The notes beneath the pieces were generated by a model. The model ran no database searches. It saw only the letters and a program-made list of their open reading frames with translations, and was not told the origin of the DNA. A stretch of DNA of 33,901 nt from Nitrososphaerota archaeon (GTDB taxonomy: Archaea; Thermoproteota; Nitrososphaeria; Nitrososphaerales; UBA57): NCBI GenBank assembly GCA_016180375.1, contig JACPBJ010000064.1, positions 1-33,901 on the forward strand, written 5' to 3'. The position numbers and the translations under genes were made by a program. The stretch's first letter is position 1. Each line of letters starts with the position of its first letter. This document shows positions 1,586 through 27,806 of this stretch, piece after piece.

Positions 1586-1668
1586 CTTTATATAGGGGGG
1601 AGGGGCTAATTTTACACAGGGGCACGCCATCCATTATACTAAGATGCTATTCTTTGCAAATTTGAGCT
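1586..1668 (+). repeat. Intergenic repeat family, copy D (modules a-b-c)
   Basis: CTTTATAT(1586-1593)...CAGGGGCACGCC(1617-1628)...ATCCATTATACTAAG...CTTTGCAAAT(1652-1661). Aligns with copies B and C. Confidence 0.5.
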
Positions 1669-3096: not shown

Positions 3097-3267
3097 TTTT
3101 TCACCACAAACCTTTTATCTTCGCAATGAAGAAATGTTAGATGTTACTTATAAATGTTTTGCCATGCTGTCTTTGTGCGTCTTTTGGAGTCTACGTGCTA
3201 ACTATTTTAAATGAGCCATAAATCTGCTTCGCTGGAACGCAAATAGATGCTGGGCTTGGTGCGTTGA

Positions 3268-11645: not shown

Positions 11646-13281
11646 GTGTGCTCTGCTTCTCCTCTATCTCTTCGCTTTCCTGTTTTTTCTCTGAAGGTAC
11701 GATTGTCTCCACTTCAGGTTGCTCCAGTTTAGCTGCTTTCTCAGCTGTTTCTGCAGCCTGCTCTGAAGTCTGCTGTTCTCCAATTAGCGTCCTGTATCTT
11801 GGAGGTCTTTTTGCCTGCGCCAGTTCTTGCGAAAACCTCGCAATGAGAGGAAGATATTTTCCATATATGTTCAGCTTCCTCTTGACCATTTCCATTGAGC
11901 CCTTTCTGGAAAGATGACCCTTCAGCTGGCGTAGAACTTCCCTGACCGCGTTCTTGAGCTCTCTTTCAAGTTCGGGCCTGTCCGCAAGATACTCCTTGCC
12001 GACAGTCTTGTAGGGAACCTTCGTTGAGCAGACATGGGTAATGATGGCAATTGGCGCATGTTCTGGTATCTTGTAGTTCTTCCAATCTATCTCTTCATTG
12101 AGAACTTTCCAAGCAACATCATTAGCCTCATCATACAGCAATGGAATCCTGTTGGCGAATCTGAAGAGTTTCTTCCCCTCTTGGAGGACCTTACCTCCAT
12201 ATGCCAAAGCTACCTCAATGACGAACGGGAAGCCTGAGTAGGCCGAAGGAGGTCTTAATTCAATTGCCAAGAATTCTGGCTGCAGCTCTTTCTGTACACC
12301 TGCTTTGAGTATCTCTTCACCCAAAGGTGATAGACAGCTCGCATCTGGTGCAAGAAACTCATCAAACTTGTGAATCGCACCAACTAACTTGACAACTTCT
12401 TCGTTATCAAGAGATTTGGGATCCCTTTGAGGATCCAGTCTTGCAAACTCTAAGAATTTCTGGGCTGTTCTTTCACCTACCCTGTGGAAATTTGCTACAA
12501 GCAGTTTTTGCAGAGTTTTTTCATTTGCCTGCCTTAACAGCCTTCTCATCGCTTCCACATCAATTCCATGCGGATGTGGCTTCGTCTCCTGAGGAGGAGA
12601 GGGCATCGCTTCGGTACCACGGAAGTAAAAGAATGGCTTTCCTTGAGGGTCGATGTAGGTTATGTTTGCAAAGGGGTTAACAAGAGCCGTCTGCCTGAAG
12701 TAATCAGCAATCTTTTGCGAGGCACGGAGAAAGTCGCCTTGAAGAGTAACCTCTACAGAAGTGCCTGTGGAACCATCTCCTTCAACTGTTTCATGGGATA
12801 GAATTATTGGCTTGTTCTCCTGAATGTCTATCAGCATTGAGAACGAGTGCAACTTCTTGCCATCAACAGATGTGGTTATCTTGACGGGCTTGTTAGTAGT
12901 TATCTGTCCGTAAAGAATGGCCATCGTGCCACCCATGCCGAACATTCCTCTAGCCTGCCTGAGTTTGAACTTGGAGCCGTAGAATACTCGAGCGAAAGCG
13001 TTGGGGGCGTGTTTTGGATCAATGCCAAGGCCATTGTCCTGCACTCTGAGCACATATGCTCTGGGATCGGCTGATTCACCCTTTGGATCGAGAGGGGTTA
13101 TTCGAACATGAACTTCAGGCAATATTCCTGCTGTTTCACATGCGTCAAGAGAGTTCTCTACGAGCTCTCTGGCTGCCATGTACAACGCTCTAGCAGGGTT
13201 GCTGAACCCAGCAAGATCCCTGTTCCTATAGAAGAATTCACTGGGAGAAATTTCACTGAAAGTAACTTGAGCGCTAACCAA
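11626..13281 (-). CDS. top6B: DNA topoisomerase VI subunit B (GHKL ATPase)
   Basis: Bergerat-fold motifs ELVENSLDA, DNGLGI, GMFGMGG. Transducer domain. Acidic C-terminal tail. TTG start. Confidence 0.95.
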   Translation of the reverse strand: MVSAQVTFSEISPSEFFYRNRDLAGFSNPARALYMAARELVENSLDACETAGILPEVHVRITPLDPKGESADPRAYVLRVQDNGLGIDPKHAPNAFARVFYGSKFKLRQARGMFGMGGTMAILYGQITTNKPVKITTSVDGKKLHSFSMLIDIQENKPIILSHETVEGDGSTGTSVEVTLQGDFLRASQKIADYFRQTALVNPFANITYIDPQGKPFFYFRGTEAMPSPPQETKPHPHGIDVEAMRRLLRQANEKTLQKLLVANFHRVGERTAQKFLEFARLDPQRDPKSLDNEEVVKLVGAIHKFDEFLAPDASCLSPLGEEILKAGVQKELQPEFLAIELRPPSAYSGFPFVIEVALAYGGKVLQEGKKLFRFANRIPLLYDEANDVAWKVLNEEIDWKNYKIPEHAPIAIITHVCSTKVPYKTVGKEYLADRPELERELKNAVREVLRQLKGHLSRKGSMEMVKRKLNIYGKYLPLIARFSQELAQAKRPPRYRTLIGEQQTSEQAAETAEKAAKLEQPEVETIVPSEKKQESEEIEEKQSTLEEFAS

Positions 13282-16766: not shown

Positions 16767-16883
16767 GTTCGATTAAGCTGCACACTCGTTCCAAACGATC
16801 CCCCTATACGGGGAGTCATGCACGTGTGCGTGCTTTGCAAATAGAACTGTAAGCTATCTACTCTAGTAAAGTACTAAGTACTC
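16756..16883 (+). repeat. Intergenic repeat family, copy A (modules b-c-d, weak a)
   Basis: CTATATAT overlapping the MTAP stop. ATCCCCCTATACGGGGAG(16798-16815). CATGCACGTGTGCGTGC. CTTTGCAAAT(16833-16842). TACTCTAG..TAAGTACTC(16859-16883). Confidence 0.55.
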
Positions 16884-17067
16884 TTCTTTCCTTATACTCT
16901 ATGCCCCTAGGTATATACCAATCAGAGGGAATCGAATATCAGTTTCACGACTAGAAGGCGTGCGGCTCGCAATATTTTTTAATTAGAGCAAAGCAAGGTT
17001 ATACAGCAGTGATGCGTGTAAGACAGCGAGCAATTACGTCTCCGATGTTATCAATTCTGCTCCCCGC

Positions 17068-17394
17068 ATGGGAAGCGATGAAATAGTGGCGGAAGTCTGT
17101 AACAAGTGCGGCCTTCCCCTCGATCTATGCGTTTGCGAGGAACTAGAGAAGGAGGAAACTCGTATAGTAGTCAGACTTGAGATGAGAAGGTTCAGGAAGC
17201 CAACGACAATGATAGAAGGATTGAATCCGAAGAGAACAGACCTTGAGAAGATTGCCCATCAGTTGAAGAGTAAGCTTGCCTGTGGAGGCACAGCGAAAGA
17301 GGGCTACATTCTGCTTCAGGGAGATCATAGAGACAGGATCAAAGAGCATCTTATCGGACTGGGGTTCAGTGAATCGGCGATAGAGGTCCAATAA
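17068..17394 (+). CDS. sui1: Translation initiation factor aIF1 (SUI1)
   Basis: N-terminal CNKCG..C.C knuckle and SUI1 fold RKPTTMIEGL, LKSKLACGGT, ILLQGDHRDRIKEHL. Confidence 0.9.
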   Translation: MGSDEIVAEVCNKCGLPLDLCVCEELEKEETRIVVRLEMRRFRKPTTMIEGLNPKRTDLEKIAHQLKSKLACGGTAKEGYILLQGDHRDRIKEHLIGLGFSESAIEVQ

Positions 17395-19102: not shown

Positions 19103-19222
19103 CTTCTCGATCAATCTGGTTAGCCATCATGCGCTCAAATATATAATCGAACCGACAGGAGGTTCTGGTAACTCTACGGCTAAGCAACGCATAGCTAATT
19201 ACCATTTATTCCCATGTTTTGA

Positions 19223-19275
19223 GTTTATATTGCAAACAAGGGAAAAATTTCTACACACAGGCTTAACACACCCTC
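19223..19275 (+). repeat. Possible sixth, degenerate copy of module a (copy F)
   Basis: GTTTATATTGCA shares an 11-mer TTTATATTGCA with copy C, and ATTTCTACACACAGG resembles ATTTTACACAGGGG of copy D. The rest is diverged. Confidence 0.25.
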
Positions 19276-19643: not shown

Positions 19644-19651
19644 ACTAAACT

Positions 19652-19683
19652 CCCAGCACATCTGGGGGACCTCATTTTCCTTT
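19652..19683 (+). terminator. Hairpin CCCAG-cacat-CTGGG followed by a T-rich tract, just after the L12 stop
   Basis: Seen directly, 8 nt after stop codon 19641-19643. Confidence 0.35.
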
Positions 19684-19842
19684 AAGCTTGCGGTAAGTAA
19701 TAGAAGTTCAAGTGTAAGAGATTTTTGTGCCTTATACGGTAGAATCCAGATTAGACCATACTGAGCTACGGTGGCTCACCCAAGCGCCATACGGTTGCAG
19801 TTTAGGCATTTTCTGAAATTTTCAGAAGGCAGATTTCATACG

Positions 19843-19979
19843 CTTTATATGGTATTCCCCAGTCTATTTTTGTGCAGGGGCGTGCCCTGTCCTCTTTACA
19901 GGGGGTGTTATGCGCGCACATATACTATACAACATAATTACAAACTCTAAGAGTAGCTTACTCTAGCAGTAAGTTACTC
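19843..19979 (+). repeat. Intergenic repeat family, copy B (modules a-b-d), free-standing between convergent genes
   Basis: CTTTATAT-N23-GCAGGGGCGTGCC (19843-19886). CCCTGTCCTCTTTACAGGGGG (19885-19905). A 12-bp hairpin GAGTAGCTTACT-ctagc-AGTAAGTTACTC (19951-19979) lies 14 nt beyond the L10 stop. Confidence 0.6.
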
Positions 19980-19992
19980 AAAGGATCGCATA

Positions 19993-20862
19993 CTATGACT
20001 GGTAGCCTTTCTTCTTTGCCAGATTCAATATGGCTTTGGCTTTTGCTTCGCTATCCGCAATAACTGCAGTCGCAGTATCCTTGGATATGTAACCTGCAGA
20101 TACCGCTAATGCCTTTGCATTTCTGAAACCTTTTGCGATTATAAGAGGTGTGCTCTCCTTGGTCAAATATACCTGCTGCACAGCAATGCCAAGCGCTGCT
20201 GCGAATGAATTCTTCAGTTCGTTCAGGTATGATTCGGGATCTATAGCAATGTCTTTTTCTCTGAATAATAGTCCATCCATGTATGCAATGTTTACCGAGA
20301 TTCCTGCCTTAATCGGCTTGAGACCGAGTCTTGAAAGTAGACCAGCAAGTGGTGCAGAAATCACATCTCCAGCTTTGGCTACTACAGTATCTTTGTTGAC
20401 GAATATACTGCCGCTTTCGATCTTTGTCGCCACCTTAGCCCCTTTGAACTCGCTGAGCACAGGACCAGGAGGAATTCCCGTATTGCCAGCCGGAATCACG
20501 ATTTCCTCAGTAGCAATATCACCTGCTCTTGCAGGCAAACTTACCCTGCCTTTCTGCAAGATAAGATAGAGCTTGAAGGGATTCATGTCGGTGAGAATTA
20601 GCACGTTTTGCCCTTTGAGCTCCTTCAACAACGCATCAGCATTCGGAAGATTCATCTTCGATAGAGCAATGTTTGTAAGCGTGTTCTTTGCAACTATGAT
20701 ATCGAGTTGATTCCTGAAGGACTTTTTCAAGCCCATAATTTGAGCAGCTCTAACCTTACCTATTCCGGCAACGGCTATGACTTTGCGCTTCTTCGCTAAA
20801 GCAGCGACGCGTTCTATTGCCTGCACTTTCTTGGGCTTGTACACCCTTTCAGTAACTTGCAA
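19993..20862 (-). CDS. rpl10: Ribosomal stalk protein P0 (uL10)
   Basis: N-terminal L10 fold. TTG start 1 nt after the L1 stop. Lacks the long acidic tail in this ORF. Confidence 0.9.
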   Translation of the reverse strand: MQVTERVYKPKKVQAIERVAALAKKRKVIAVAGIGKVRAAQIMGLKKSFRNQLDIIVAKNTLTNIALSKMNLPNADALLKELKGQNVLILTDMNPFKLYLILQKGRVSLPARAGDIATEEIVIPAGNTGIPPGPVLSEFKGAKVATKIESGSIFVNKDTVVAKAGDVISAPLAGLLSRLGLKPIKAGISVNIAYMDGLLFREKDIAIDPESYLNELKNSFAAALGIAVQQVYLTKESTPLIIAKGFRNAKALAVSAGYISKDTATAVIADSEAKAKAILNLAKKKGYQS

Positions 20863-22547: not shown

Positions 22548-22724
22548 CTAACCCTGAAGCCTAAGAAGAGAGCCTATTAGTTGCACAATATAGCCTATGG
22601 TTCCCACTACAGCAATCCCAAGCATTGTGAGCTTCATGTAGAGGTAAAACTCCTCTCTGTCGGACTTGTGCGCAAGTTTGAGCGTATTGATGCTGGCGCG
22701 CACGAAATTCCCTATGTCTACCAT
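22548..22724 (-). CDS. secE: Preprotein translocase subunit SecE (Sec61 gamma)
   Basis: Not in the ORF track (58 aa). My translation is MVDIGNFVRASINTLKLAHKSDREEFYLYMKLTMLGIAVVGTIGYIVQLIGSLLRLQG. It shows the K.(S/P)..EF...K....G....G.IGY pattern and the canonical position upstream of spt5-L11. Confidence 0.75.
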   Translation of the reverse strand: MVDIGNFVRASINTLKLAHKSDREEFYLYMKLTMLGIAVVGTIGYIVQLIGSLLRLQG

Positions 22725-22757
22725 TTCCTGTAATCCACAACTCTGAAAACTACCATC

Positions 22758-22765
22758 AATATATC
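22758..22765 (-). promoter_or_regulatory. TATA box (GATATATT on the minus strand) for the secE-spt5-L11-L1-L10 operon
   Basis: 41 nt from TATA start to the secE ATG at 22724. Confidence 0.45.
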
Positions 22766-22968
22766 CTTTGCAGAAAGCATTTGCTTCTCAATTCTTCCAT
22801 TGGGTTGCCACTTTCTTGCTTTTCGTGCGCATCTTCTTCCTAACTGACTTCCAAGACATTGCTTTGGCCTCTGCCGAGCCCGTGAGCAGGTATTATTTAT
22901 GCACGTAAAATCAGTGCTAGTTGACCATTTGATATCATTCACTTTAACATTCTCGAGTTCTACCTACC

Positions 22969-23019
22969 TGCAATAACGCGCCCGTGCATGCAAACTATAC
23001 GGGGAGAGTCGCATGAGGC
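22969..23019. repeat. Intergenic repeat family, copy E (module b plus GC-rich core; orientation ambiguous)
   Basis: CTATACGGGGAG (22995-23006) is identical to the 12-mer in copy A on the same strand. On the reverse strand CTCCCCGTATAG..CATGCACGGGCGCG parallels the A order (CATGCACG 8-mer shared). Confidence 0.45.
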
Positions 23020-23228
23020 AAGAAAATAATGGGCACATTAATGAGGTGATTGTTAAGCCTATGATTAAGATAGAAAAGGCCTTTCAAAACTGCTGCTTAT
23101 CATTTTCTAGTTTGGAAGTTAAGAGCCAAGAAAAATTGTAACCTTAGATGGCTCTGTAAGATGCAATAGCCAGTCTTTTTGCCGCTCGATTGTTTCATTA
23201 TGATTAACAAATACAATTGATTATACGC

Positions 23229-26483: not shown

Positions 26484-26645
26484 GTCATGCAACAGAGTAT
26501 GAATTAAAGATGTTAAGGATTCTACTTACAAAGAAAGGCTAGTCGGTCTCTGGACAAAAGCCGATTCCATTACATATTTCGATAACTTCTCAGTAGAGGG
26601 ACAGTAGGTCAAACATTTTATCCTAGCAATTAAGAGCGTAGTAGG

Positions 26646-27290: not shown

Positions 27291-27378
27291 CTTTTCGCAC
27301 GTATGCACACGCTTGACCCTAGTATAAGGGGGATAGCACGCCCCTGCGCAAAACTAGTCCGGGGGATGCAATATAAAG
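27291..27378 (-). repeat. Intergenic repeat family, copy C (modules a-b), between divergent rpoK and the cyclophilin-like gene
   Basis: The reverse strand reads CTTTATATTGCATCCCCCGGACTAGTTTTGCGCAGGGGCGTGCTATCCCCCTTATACTAGGGTCAAGCGTGTGCATACGTGCG. 36/44 ungapped identities to copy B over module a (counted by hand). Confidence 0.6.
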
Positions 27379-27401: not shown

Positions 27402-27806
27402 ATGCATTTTTTGGTGCTTGTGTTGTCATCAGTTTCTAAGATAGGGTTAAGGGCAGTTTTTGCCGGCAAGGGAGAGGCGAAGATCAACATCTATAGGCAT
27501 CTATCTCCTGTTACGGTTAGCAGCATGCAGCGAATGAATGTCTTGGCAGGCAGGATTACAAGGTTTCAGGACACTTTCATCTACGCTCCGCTCGGTGTAG
27601 GGGTCGGTGTTGAGAAAGCGAAGAAGCAGTTCAAGAGAGGAGAGGTTGCGTTCATGTCATCTACTGGCGCTGTATGTTTCTTCCTCAAGGACGCGAATGT
27701 TGGCGTAGGGATGAACCCTCTTGGTGAAGTCGTTTCCGGAATGGAGATAATTGATAAGTGCGGCGCTGGCGATACAGTTCAATTAATAGAAGAGAAAAGC
27801 ATTTGA
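27402..27806 (+). CDS. Cyclophilin-like (TM1367/PF04126-like) protein, hypothetical
   Basis: The pattern RGEVAFMSSTGAVCFFLKD....MNPLGEVVSGMEIIDKCGAGDTVQL resembles the cyclophilin-like family. The start may be a few codons downstream. Confidence 0.45.
   Translation: MHFLVLVLSSVSKIGLRAVFAGKGEAKINIYRHLSPVTVSSMQRMNVLAGRITRFQDTFIYAPLGVGVGVEKAKKQFKRGEVAFMSSTGAVCFFLKDANVGVGMNPLGEVVSGMEIIDKCGAGDTVQLIEEKSI

Follow-up and report, generated by a model that had tools for sequence, protein, structure and literature searches.

What kind of element lies between the convergent L12 and L10 genes of this archaeal contig, and why do parts of it recur in other spacers nearby? The window (the whole stretch of DNA analysed, a 33.9-kb contig with a GC content of about 45%) carries genes for TFB, ProRS, topoisomerase VI, SUI1/aIF1, L12, a secE–nusG–L11–L1–L10 operon convergent with L12, apgM, rpoK and glutamate synthase, some of these names being taken from the annotation of a relative, L007; no transposase, integrase or RAYT gene is found among its genes. 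The earlier note on this DNA read the recurring modules as a dispersed intergenic family of small RNAs or structured leaders, each with its own TATA box. We compared the window with relatives chosen by protein look-up, in which L10 is 97% (L018), 96% (L007), 91% (L008) and 78% (L009–L011) identical to the window L10, and with L017 (RpoK 82% identical to that of the window) and L020, a more distant relative in which the TFB protein is 99% identical and the DNA just 70–82% identical to the window. The survey of the family covered about 100 kb of DNA from this clade of uncultured, apparently non-ammonia-oxidising Thaumarchaeota; a scan of genome contigs with L10 returned only relatives at most 49% identical, none of them with the motif. 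The copies considered are the following.

19843–19886 (+): copy A, module a, with CTTTATAT, a C-tract, a T-rich stretch and GCAGGGGCGTGC.
19887–19922 (+): module-b-like continuation of copy A, CCCTGT...ACAGGGGG and GCGCGCACATA, colinear with copy B.
27302–27378 (−): copy B, modules a and b, the most complete copy.
1586–1650 (+): copy C, modules a and b, about 125 nt upstream of ORF1742; L020:11910–11859 lies at the orthologous position.
16796–16833 (strand ambiguous): copy D1, the module b of the earlier note, a GATCCCCCTATACGGGGAGTC hairpin followed by GCACGTGTGCGTGC, with an orthologue in L007.
16886–16936 (+): copy D2, a degenerate subtype-2 module a, CCTTATAC...GCCCC...CAGAGGGA, about 140 nt upstream of SUI1.
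22972–23025 (−): copy E, a degenerate module a, with the small ORF/secE operon about 124 nt downstream.
19222–19262 (+): a weak extra copy, GTTTATATTGCA...CACACAGGC, with TTTATAT at 19224, non-significant (E = 16–49).

The A/B pair is the longest inverted repeat of the window (62 nt at 74% identity; the runner-up is 34 nt). Our own recount on both sequences agrees with the 36 of 44 ungapped identities reported before, and the gapped alignment extends over about 80 nt (19843–19922 against 27378–27302), with z = 15 when all spacers are compared by Smith–Waterman alignment against dinucleotide shuffles. Copy B is the hub of the family: by the same measure C matches it colinearly over about 95 nt (z = 7.1) and D over about 90 nt (z = 4.2), and its matches to the L018 and L007 copies reach z of about 6–7, while the copy upstream of secE in L008 matches the D2 orthologue of L007 with z = 7.2. 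The A–C and A–D comparisons are non-significant, and the likeness of D and E does not go beyond a common 12-mer (z = 0.5). An unrelated pair of promoters reaches z = 7.4 in this comparison, so similarity at the level of copy C is unexceptional among promoters. That pair (3107–3132 and 26610–26635, both on the plus strand; CAAACNTTTTATCNTNGCAATNAAGA, 22 of 26 positions identical) lies upstream of ProRS/TFB and of an AsnC-like gene.

Membership was further examined by a leave-out test, in which each group of orthologues was removed from the profile and 107 kb were then searched. Copies A (E = 3.5e-4), B (1e-7), L020 (1.7e-5) and L018 (4.8e-5) each came back as the top non-training match; recovery was weak for C (0.16), the D2 orthologue of L007 (0.036), the L008 copy (0.31), D2 of the window (2) and E of the window (2.9), and no further locus scored better than E of about 1 in the 107 kb. 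A profile built from the known copies gave no other match in about 230 kb of DNA examined before the search of L020. A scan for more copies, as the earlier note had proposed, was then rewarded in the clade DNA: a profile holding no L020 sequence found a new copy at L020:11910–11859 (E = 3.7e-6), at the position orthologous to C. Given the leave-out recovery, the L020 match and the absence of any rival locus better than E of about 1, we take the family to be genuine and restricted, on these comparisons, to one clade (the window, L018, L007, L008 and L020). Outside it, a metagenome scan with CTANTTTTRYRCAGGGGCRYGC, a pattern that fits A, B and C, gave three matches, all in unrelated coding-like sequence and at chance level; a viral-contig scan with TTTTGNGCAGGGGCGTGC gave one, again by chance; and the copies had no matches in plasmid, phage or viral collections.

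A dispersed modular family with a TATA-like box does therefore exist, as profile and alignments agree, and its presence in the spacers is strong for A and B and weaker for C, D and E. Its outline differs in several respects from the one first drawn. Copies occur in five of the ten spacers of at least 150 nt, rather than five of eight. Copy E had been placed on the plus strand as a module b (22995–23006); the orthologous secE-upstream spacer of L018 reads TAGTCCCCCCCGTATAGTTTGCACACAGGGGCGCG, a clear module a, which puts copy E on the minus strand. The proposed module c is a single 10-mer common to two sites, where about ten such matches are estimated by chance among the spacers, and module d, which in A is a 12-bp hairpin arising from a 44-nt insertion at the L10 3′ end, is not above chance either. 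All five TTTATAT heptamers in the 34 kb lie in spacers, three of them in copies A, B and C; C4/G4 tracts and CTAG are, by count, only mildly enriched between genes.

In the full unit, of about 45–90 nt, a lead-in rich in pyrimidines is followed by an octamer resembling a TATA box (CYTYATRY; CTTTATAT in good copies), then by the C-tract box, by T-rich sequence placed where a promoter-proximal element would sit, and by a YR step with a G-tract box (CAGGGGCGYG). In A and B the G-tract box repeats the C-tract box imperfectly in inverted orientation, giving imperfect inverted arms of 9–12 nt that are complementary in these two copies only; copy C has a G-tract in place of the C-tract box, as though inverted. 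A, B and C are good copies, and D2 and E of the window are degenerate; the D2 orthologue of L007 starts CTTTCTTTATATTG, with 14 nt identical to copy B. The copies fall into two subtypes with about 45–70% identity among copies, and the order of modules varies, a then b in B and b then a in D. A 539-nt spacer of L020 holds several partial modules. In the TFB–ProRS spacer of L020 (9740–9795, plus strand) there is also a module-b-like hairpin, GCTCCCCTCCTAGACGGGGGTCGTGCAGGCGGGCGGGCATGC, absent from the shorter orthologous spacer of the window (3097–3267).

Orthologous copies are only 79–81% identical while L10 is 96–97% identical; the copies change no more slowly than the spacer around them, and from one close relative to the next they arise and decay. 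Orthologous positions in L018, L008 and L007 retain the secE and SUI1 copies, rpoK has no copy B before it in L017 and L008, and copy A is missing in four relatives. The history of the family, as far as these alignments reveal it, is one of fast turnover through duplication and decay.

What the unit might do is suggested by its layout and position. The order TATA, T-rich stretch, YR step is present, and the G of GCAGGGG lies about 26 nt from the TATA centre. A TATA box of the kind claimed earlier is seen in A, B, C, the L008 copy (L008P5) and the D2 orthologue of L007, where it is centred about 26–27 nt before the predicted purine start and accompanied by the T-rich element; it is weakened in D2 of the window (CCTTATAC) and degenerate (TCATAC or TCATGC), with the remaining unit kept, in three of the nine copies (those of L018 and the window upstream of secE, and that of L020). 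In forward orientation no purine-rich BRE was found upstream of the TATA, the flank being pyrimidine-rich (TTTCTT); in reverse orientation the G-tract lies upstream of it. Between the copies and the start codons that follow them, those of rpoK, ORF1742, SUI1/aIF1 and the secE–nusG–L11–L1–L10 operon, lie about 90–165 nt (for B, C, D2 and E the range is given as about 110–170 nt), and every gene-proximal copy is oriented toward its downstream gene. The distance from G-box to ATG is about 115 nt for B, 123 for C, 124 for E, 122 for the orthologue of E in L018 and about 140 for D2. The weak copy at 19222–19262 lies upstream of the proximal promoter of L12, about 95 nt before that gene.

In most window genes a TATA-like box precedes the start codon by about 25–40 nt, suggesting mRNAs with short leaders or none, and no promoter or transcription-start mapping was found published for this uncultured thaumarchaeal clade. 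The rpoK gene, ORF1742, SUI1 and the small ORF/secE each have a proximal TATA of their own, that of rpoK being conserved in L017, where copy B is absent. It should be noted that the TATA of copy B, read on the plus strand, falls at −32 to −25 of the ATG at 27402 and is equally suited to leaderless transcription of that gene.

Several other features of these spacers were recorded. Just upstream of secE, a conserved 23-codon, very basic ORF (MSWKSVRKKMRTKSKKVATQWKN; 22788–22859, minus strand) is also present in L018, L008 and L009. It has a conserved TATA to itself (GCATAAATAATACC) but matches nothing in NCBIfam, and may encode a small protein that annotation has missed, possibly a ribosomal one. 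A block of about 70 nt that immediately precedes the secE-operon TATA (GAATGTTAAAGTGAATGATATCAAATGGTCAACTAGCACTGATTTTACG; 22885–22960, minus strand) is far better conserved among the window, L018, L008 and L009 than the neighbouring repeat copy and could, from its conservation, be a regulatory site or an RNA. The 74-aa GTG ORF at 22718–22942 (minus strand) over-calls secE, relatives and conservation indicating a 58-aa SecE from 22894. Before SUI1/aIF1, a 25-codon upstream ORF (17011–17088, plus strand) overlaps the start codon; it begins about 25–30 nt past an AT-rich TATA-like stretch, AATATTTTTTAATTA, which is at once a T6 run. After L12 comes a hairpin with a T-run (19650–19682, plus strand; TCCCAG-CACAT-CTGGGGGA...TTTTCC), which in L007 and L008 has another sequence in an identical layout; this persistence of layout despite sequence change suggests intrinsic-type terminators in this clade.

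We tentatively favour a reading of the repeat as a clade-specific promoter-region cassette, fast-evolving and acting at the level of DNA, copies of which would have been duplicated into several spacers. Its good copies may supplement the proximal promoters, either as promoters themselves at a distance or as regulatory sites, and the C4/G4 boxes may bind a factor; copy A is an orphan carried on an insertion with a tRNA stump. Against this reading speak the degenerate TATA of three copies, the missing BRE, a T6 run shortly after the G-box in L020, the equally good fit of the TATA of copy B to the gene on the other strand and the chance-level matches of the metagenome scan.

The origin of copy A follows from the L12–L10 spacer. 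In the window it measures 349 nt; L018, L007 and L008 have 115 nt there, and L009 has 63 nt. Alignment shows one insertion in this spacer and a second inside the L10 3′ end, listed here with the tRNA remnants.

19703–19922 (no strand assigned): insertion carrying copy A, about 220 nt with approximate boundaries, in the L12–L10 spacer, from the alignment with relatives.
19755–19775 (−): tRNA gene stump, nt 1–21, GCCACCGTAGCTCAGTATGGT, part of a 23-nt exact match to L008:1185–1207.
19776–19842 (−): remnant of a tRNA promoter region between the stump and copy A; its TATA-like CCTAAACTGC precedes the stump by about 27 nt.
19958–20001 (no strand assigned): second insertion, 44 nt, with GTAGC direct-repeat flanks, inside the L10 3′ end.

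The larger insertion is absent from L018, L007, L008 and L009 (L10 97, 96, 91 and 78% identical, respectively). It is colinear with the tRNA–secE spacer of L008 (1130–1335), in which the stump is followed by the promoter of the tRNA and then by a module a in divergent orientation. Copy A is therefore best described, on this alignment, as a displaced fragment of a tRNA-upstream promoter region, neither an independent insertion unit nor a gene. The earlier note had argued that a copy pointing into L10 cannot be a leader and must give a free-standing RNA; a strain-specific insertion duplicating a tRNA-upstream region is the simpler account, and copy A would at most drive antisense transcription into the L10 3′ end. 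An origin by inversion was rejected, the convergent L10–L12 adjacency and both ancestral spacer flanks being retained.

The tRNA to which the stump corresponds begins GCCACCGTAGCTCAGTATGG. An intact intron-bearing tRNA gene stands at the same secE-upstream place in L018 (79–181, minus strand; Rfam tRNA, 49.7 bits), and in L021 a tRNA gene, not a family copy, lies upstream of the ORF1742 orthologue. The tRNA of L018 has about 29 extra nt in its anticodon arm, an apparent tRNA at about 2345–2540 of L021 (minus strand) has much longer insertions, and such genes with long or non-canonical introns were missed by ARAGORN. In the window, ARAGORN with and without introns found no tRNA, only artefact calls with kilobase-long ‘introns’; neither the 3′ part of the tRNA nor a second copy of the 21-mer was found there. 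Scans of viral contigs for the 21-mer gave no match, nor did blastn of the copy A insertion against plasmids and phages.

The stump has a fixed form: promoter and tRNA nt 1–21 are present in two genomes, the window and L008, in which these 21 nt and the two upstream nt are identical and end at the same nucleotide, with unrelated sequence beyond. In a split tRNA gene, a promoter-bearing piece has a flank that can pair with the leader of its partner, which is encoded elsewhere. This source for the stump is disfavoured, as the flanks past nt 21 differ between the window and L008. The 44-nt insertion changes the L10 C-terminus from GYS* to GYQS*, supplying a new stop (the old one is 46 nt downstream) and creating the 12-bp hairpin (19951–19979) in the new L10 3′ UTR.

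Both inserts can be set beside the scars of integrated elements in Thaumarchaeota (Krupovic et al., 2019; PMC6563490). The att sites of these elements are short (median 17 bp), one reported element uses the 5′-distal part of a tRNA gene, and a protein-coding gene with an integration at its 3′ end receives a new stop codon from the element. The stump, ending at a fixed nucleotide in two genomes with 23 nt identical, and the new stop gained by L10 at its 3′ end resemble such scars. They differ in that the inserts measure only about 220 and 44 nt with no integrase or element body, and in that the stump lies in a protein-gene spacer rather than at a tRNA gene. Since short att sites, 5′-distal tRNA targeting and new 3′-end stops are all known in Thaumarchaeota, a recombination scar would be the most economical origin of the insertions, although the window has no integrase.

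The favoured cassette has to be weighed against readings that share part of its evidence. The next in rank, although unlikely, is a cluster of binding sites for a clade-specific DNA-binding regulator, in which the unit is a pair of inverted boxes and the TATA is incidental or belongs to the neighbouring gene. GGGGNRTGC-like half-sites would then lie 16–17 bp apart in module a and 5–8 bp apart in module b, tuning a regulon of transcription and translation genes. Where the TATA is degenerate and the rest kept, as in the secE-upstream copies of L018 and the window and in L020, a binding site fits better than a promoter, the C-tract...G-tract core being retained in the L018 and L020 copies. The inverted arms of A and B, the inverted left box of copy C (tolerable for a dyad site), the consistent position upstream of the ATG and the genes served (rpoK, aIF1, the secE–nusG–r-protein operon and L12) agree with this. 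On the other hand, no part of the spacer varies more between close orthologues than the C- and G-tracts (E in the window and L018, D2 in the window and L007), the arms pair in A and B alone, copy B is absent before rpoK in L017 and L008, and no candidate regulator was identified.

We rank lower, as a rather improbable alternative, a non-autonomous repeat spread by mobility or recombination (a MITE, or a REP/BIME-like mosaic of short GC-rich palindromes) that incidentally carries promoter-like sequence and enters AT-rich spacers. The varying mosaic order with partial modules in the 539-nt spacer of L020, the differences in presence between relatives and the good and degenerate copies side by side would be natural for such a repeat, as would the identity of about 67–75% between the non-orthologous copies of L018 (upstream of secE) and L020, near the 79–81% of true orthologues. 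Yet neither terminal inverted repeats nor target-site duplication were found at A, B or C; the sole clear insertion, A, is a composite with a tRNA stump and not a clean unit, and the comparison of filled and empty sites, possible for A only, showed no duplication and no definable terminal repeats, the GTAGC flanks belonging to the separate 44-nt insert alone. Copies just 45–70% identical, a window lacking transposase, RAYT and integrase genes, plasmid, phage and viral collections without matches and the uniform orientation of gene-proximal copies toward their genes also speak against it. Origin-recognition boxes were considered and rejected: the copies are dispersed, with no orc1/cdc6 gene and no ORB dyad.

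Thaumarchaeota have many TFB paralogues. A bolder combination, which we hold improbable, would make the unit an archaeal counterpart of promoter-bearing REP/BIME-like or ‘mobile promoter’ repeats, a self-propagating cassette that sets a complete TATA/PPE/Inr about 120 nt ahead of genes for transcription and translation, perhaps read by a TFB paralogue and spread with tRNA-upstream fragments by site-specific recombination at short att sites.

The small-RNA or structured-leader reading of the earlier note, with its own TATA, a start at GCAGGGG and functional C-tract/G-tract hairpins, has the least support among the specific hypotheses and is improbable. The TATA-to-G spacing does suit an archaeal start site, the A–B similarity continues for about 50 nt beyond the predicted start, and a T6 run follows D2 after about 57 nt. 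The predicted transcript of A also has a fold a little more stable than those of shuffled sequence (z = −2.2), an excess due to the L10-end hairpin, which is the sole strong hairpin among the predicted transcripts; the others give +0.4 (B), +1.5 (C) and −1.2 (D), and the opposite strands −0.7 to +0.5. No covariation accompanies this. The compensatory changes sought in the C-tract/G-tract stems are not seen, 66% of cells being paired compared with 65% in shuffles (200 of 500 shuffles as high), and RNAalifold yields no consensus structure (−1.3 kcal/mol). Moreover, in A, B and C the predicted start comes after the C-tract, which would thus be outside the RNA; the transcribed parts of subtypes 1 and 2 share only the G-tract; and orthologues are no better conserved downstream than upstream of the start. 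In L020 a T6 run occurs about 8 nt past the G-box and about 20 nt past the predicted start, so a transcript starting there would be stopped. The Rfam search, which had been suggested as a check, found no family that explains the element: with gathering thresholds and in E-value mode, even at E ≤ 5–10, the window, the A region and the relatives gave no family but the L018 tRNA, the other matches in E-value mode being at chance level and none of them on a copy. Fold z-scores, missing covariation, the upstream C-tract, the degenerate TATAs and the L020 T6 run together point to a DNA element rather than an RNA gene.

Among other RNA or coding candidates, C/D-box and H/ACA sRNAs were set aside (no box C/D motifs in the copies; by eye, just a poor half-match in the secE-upstream block), and short ORFs from the predicted starts are not conserved among copies. 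Elsewhere in the window, 12037–12127 (plus strand) gives a weak Rfam match to the C/D-box snoR1 (27 bits, E = 0.08) inside the topoisomerase VI B gene, probably by chance.

Finally, chance or generic strong-promoter similarity, with common descent for the single A/B pair only, is very improbable: the unrelated promoter pair at z = 7.4, the weakness of C, D2 and E of the window once left out of the profile and the chance-level modules c and d and D–E match favour it, against z = 15 for A–B, about 6–7 for B with L018 and L007, the independent L020 match at the position of C and no false positives better than E of about 1 in 107 kb.

If the cassettes fire, they would represent an archaeal case of promoter reuse, in which rpoK, aIF1 and the secE–nusG–r-protein operon have a common distal promoter or control site. 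The orphan copy A would illustrate the movement of a fragment on a small insertion with a tRNA-gene stump, tying promoter turnover to tRNA-associated recombination. At present the family is a lineage-specific intergenic repeat with a putative function and chiefly calls for caution in annotation, since copy A ought not to be annotated as a gene for an sRNA.

Among known systems, the archaeal core promoter, with its BRE–TATA–PPE–Inr order, is outlined in transcriptome reports on Thermococcus, Haloferax and Methanocaldococcus (e.g. PMC5316973, PMC2699501). The cassette resembles it in its 8-bp TATA, in the T-rich stretch about 10 nt before a predicted pyrimidine–purine start and in the canonical spacing; it differs in its extra C-tract and G-tract boxes, in having no purine-rich BRE upstream, in being followed, about 100 nt further on, by a second, proximal TATA and in the loss of the TATA in three of nine copies. 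The REP/BIME mosaics and promoter-bearing MITEs of bacteria (e.g. Correia elements, ERIC) are short GC-rich imperfect palindromes, some of which carry promoters; REP/BIME are extragenic palindromes of 20–40 nt in mosaic clusters, with an associated RAYT/TnpA gene and a high copy number across the genome. The likeness here is that of short GC-rich sequences in variable order in AT-rich spacers, with imperfect palindromic arms in A and B only; terminal repeats, target duplications, RAYT and transposase are not seen, identity among copies is low and orientation is linked to genes. The closest described concept, by analogy, would be promoter reuse by ‘putative mobile promoters’, defined as homologous non-coding DNA upstream of unrelated genes in one genome, sharing 80% identity or more across 50 nt or more, at −150 to −50 from the start codon of non-paralogous genes (Matus-Garcia, Nijveen & van Passel, 2012; PMC3575422). 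The present family departs from them in identity, its best pair (A–B) reaching 74% over 62 nt and the other pairs 45–67%, and in being archaeal with a TATA-type architecture, whereas the examples discussed are bacterial. It agrees with them in the position of copies B, C, D2 and E, at −150 to −50 upstream of unrelated genes, in not being linked to a known insertion sequence and in a function that is likewise putative.
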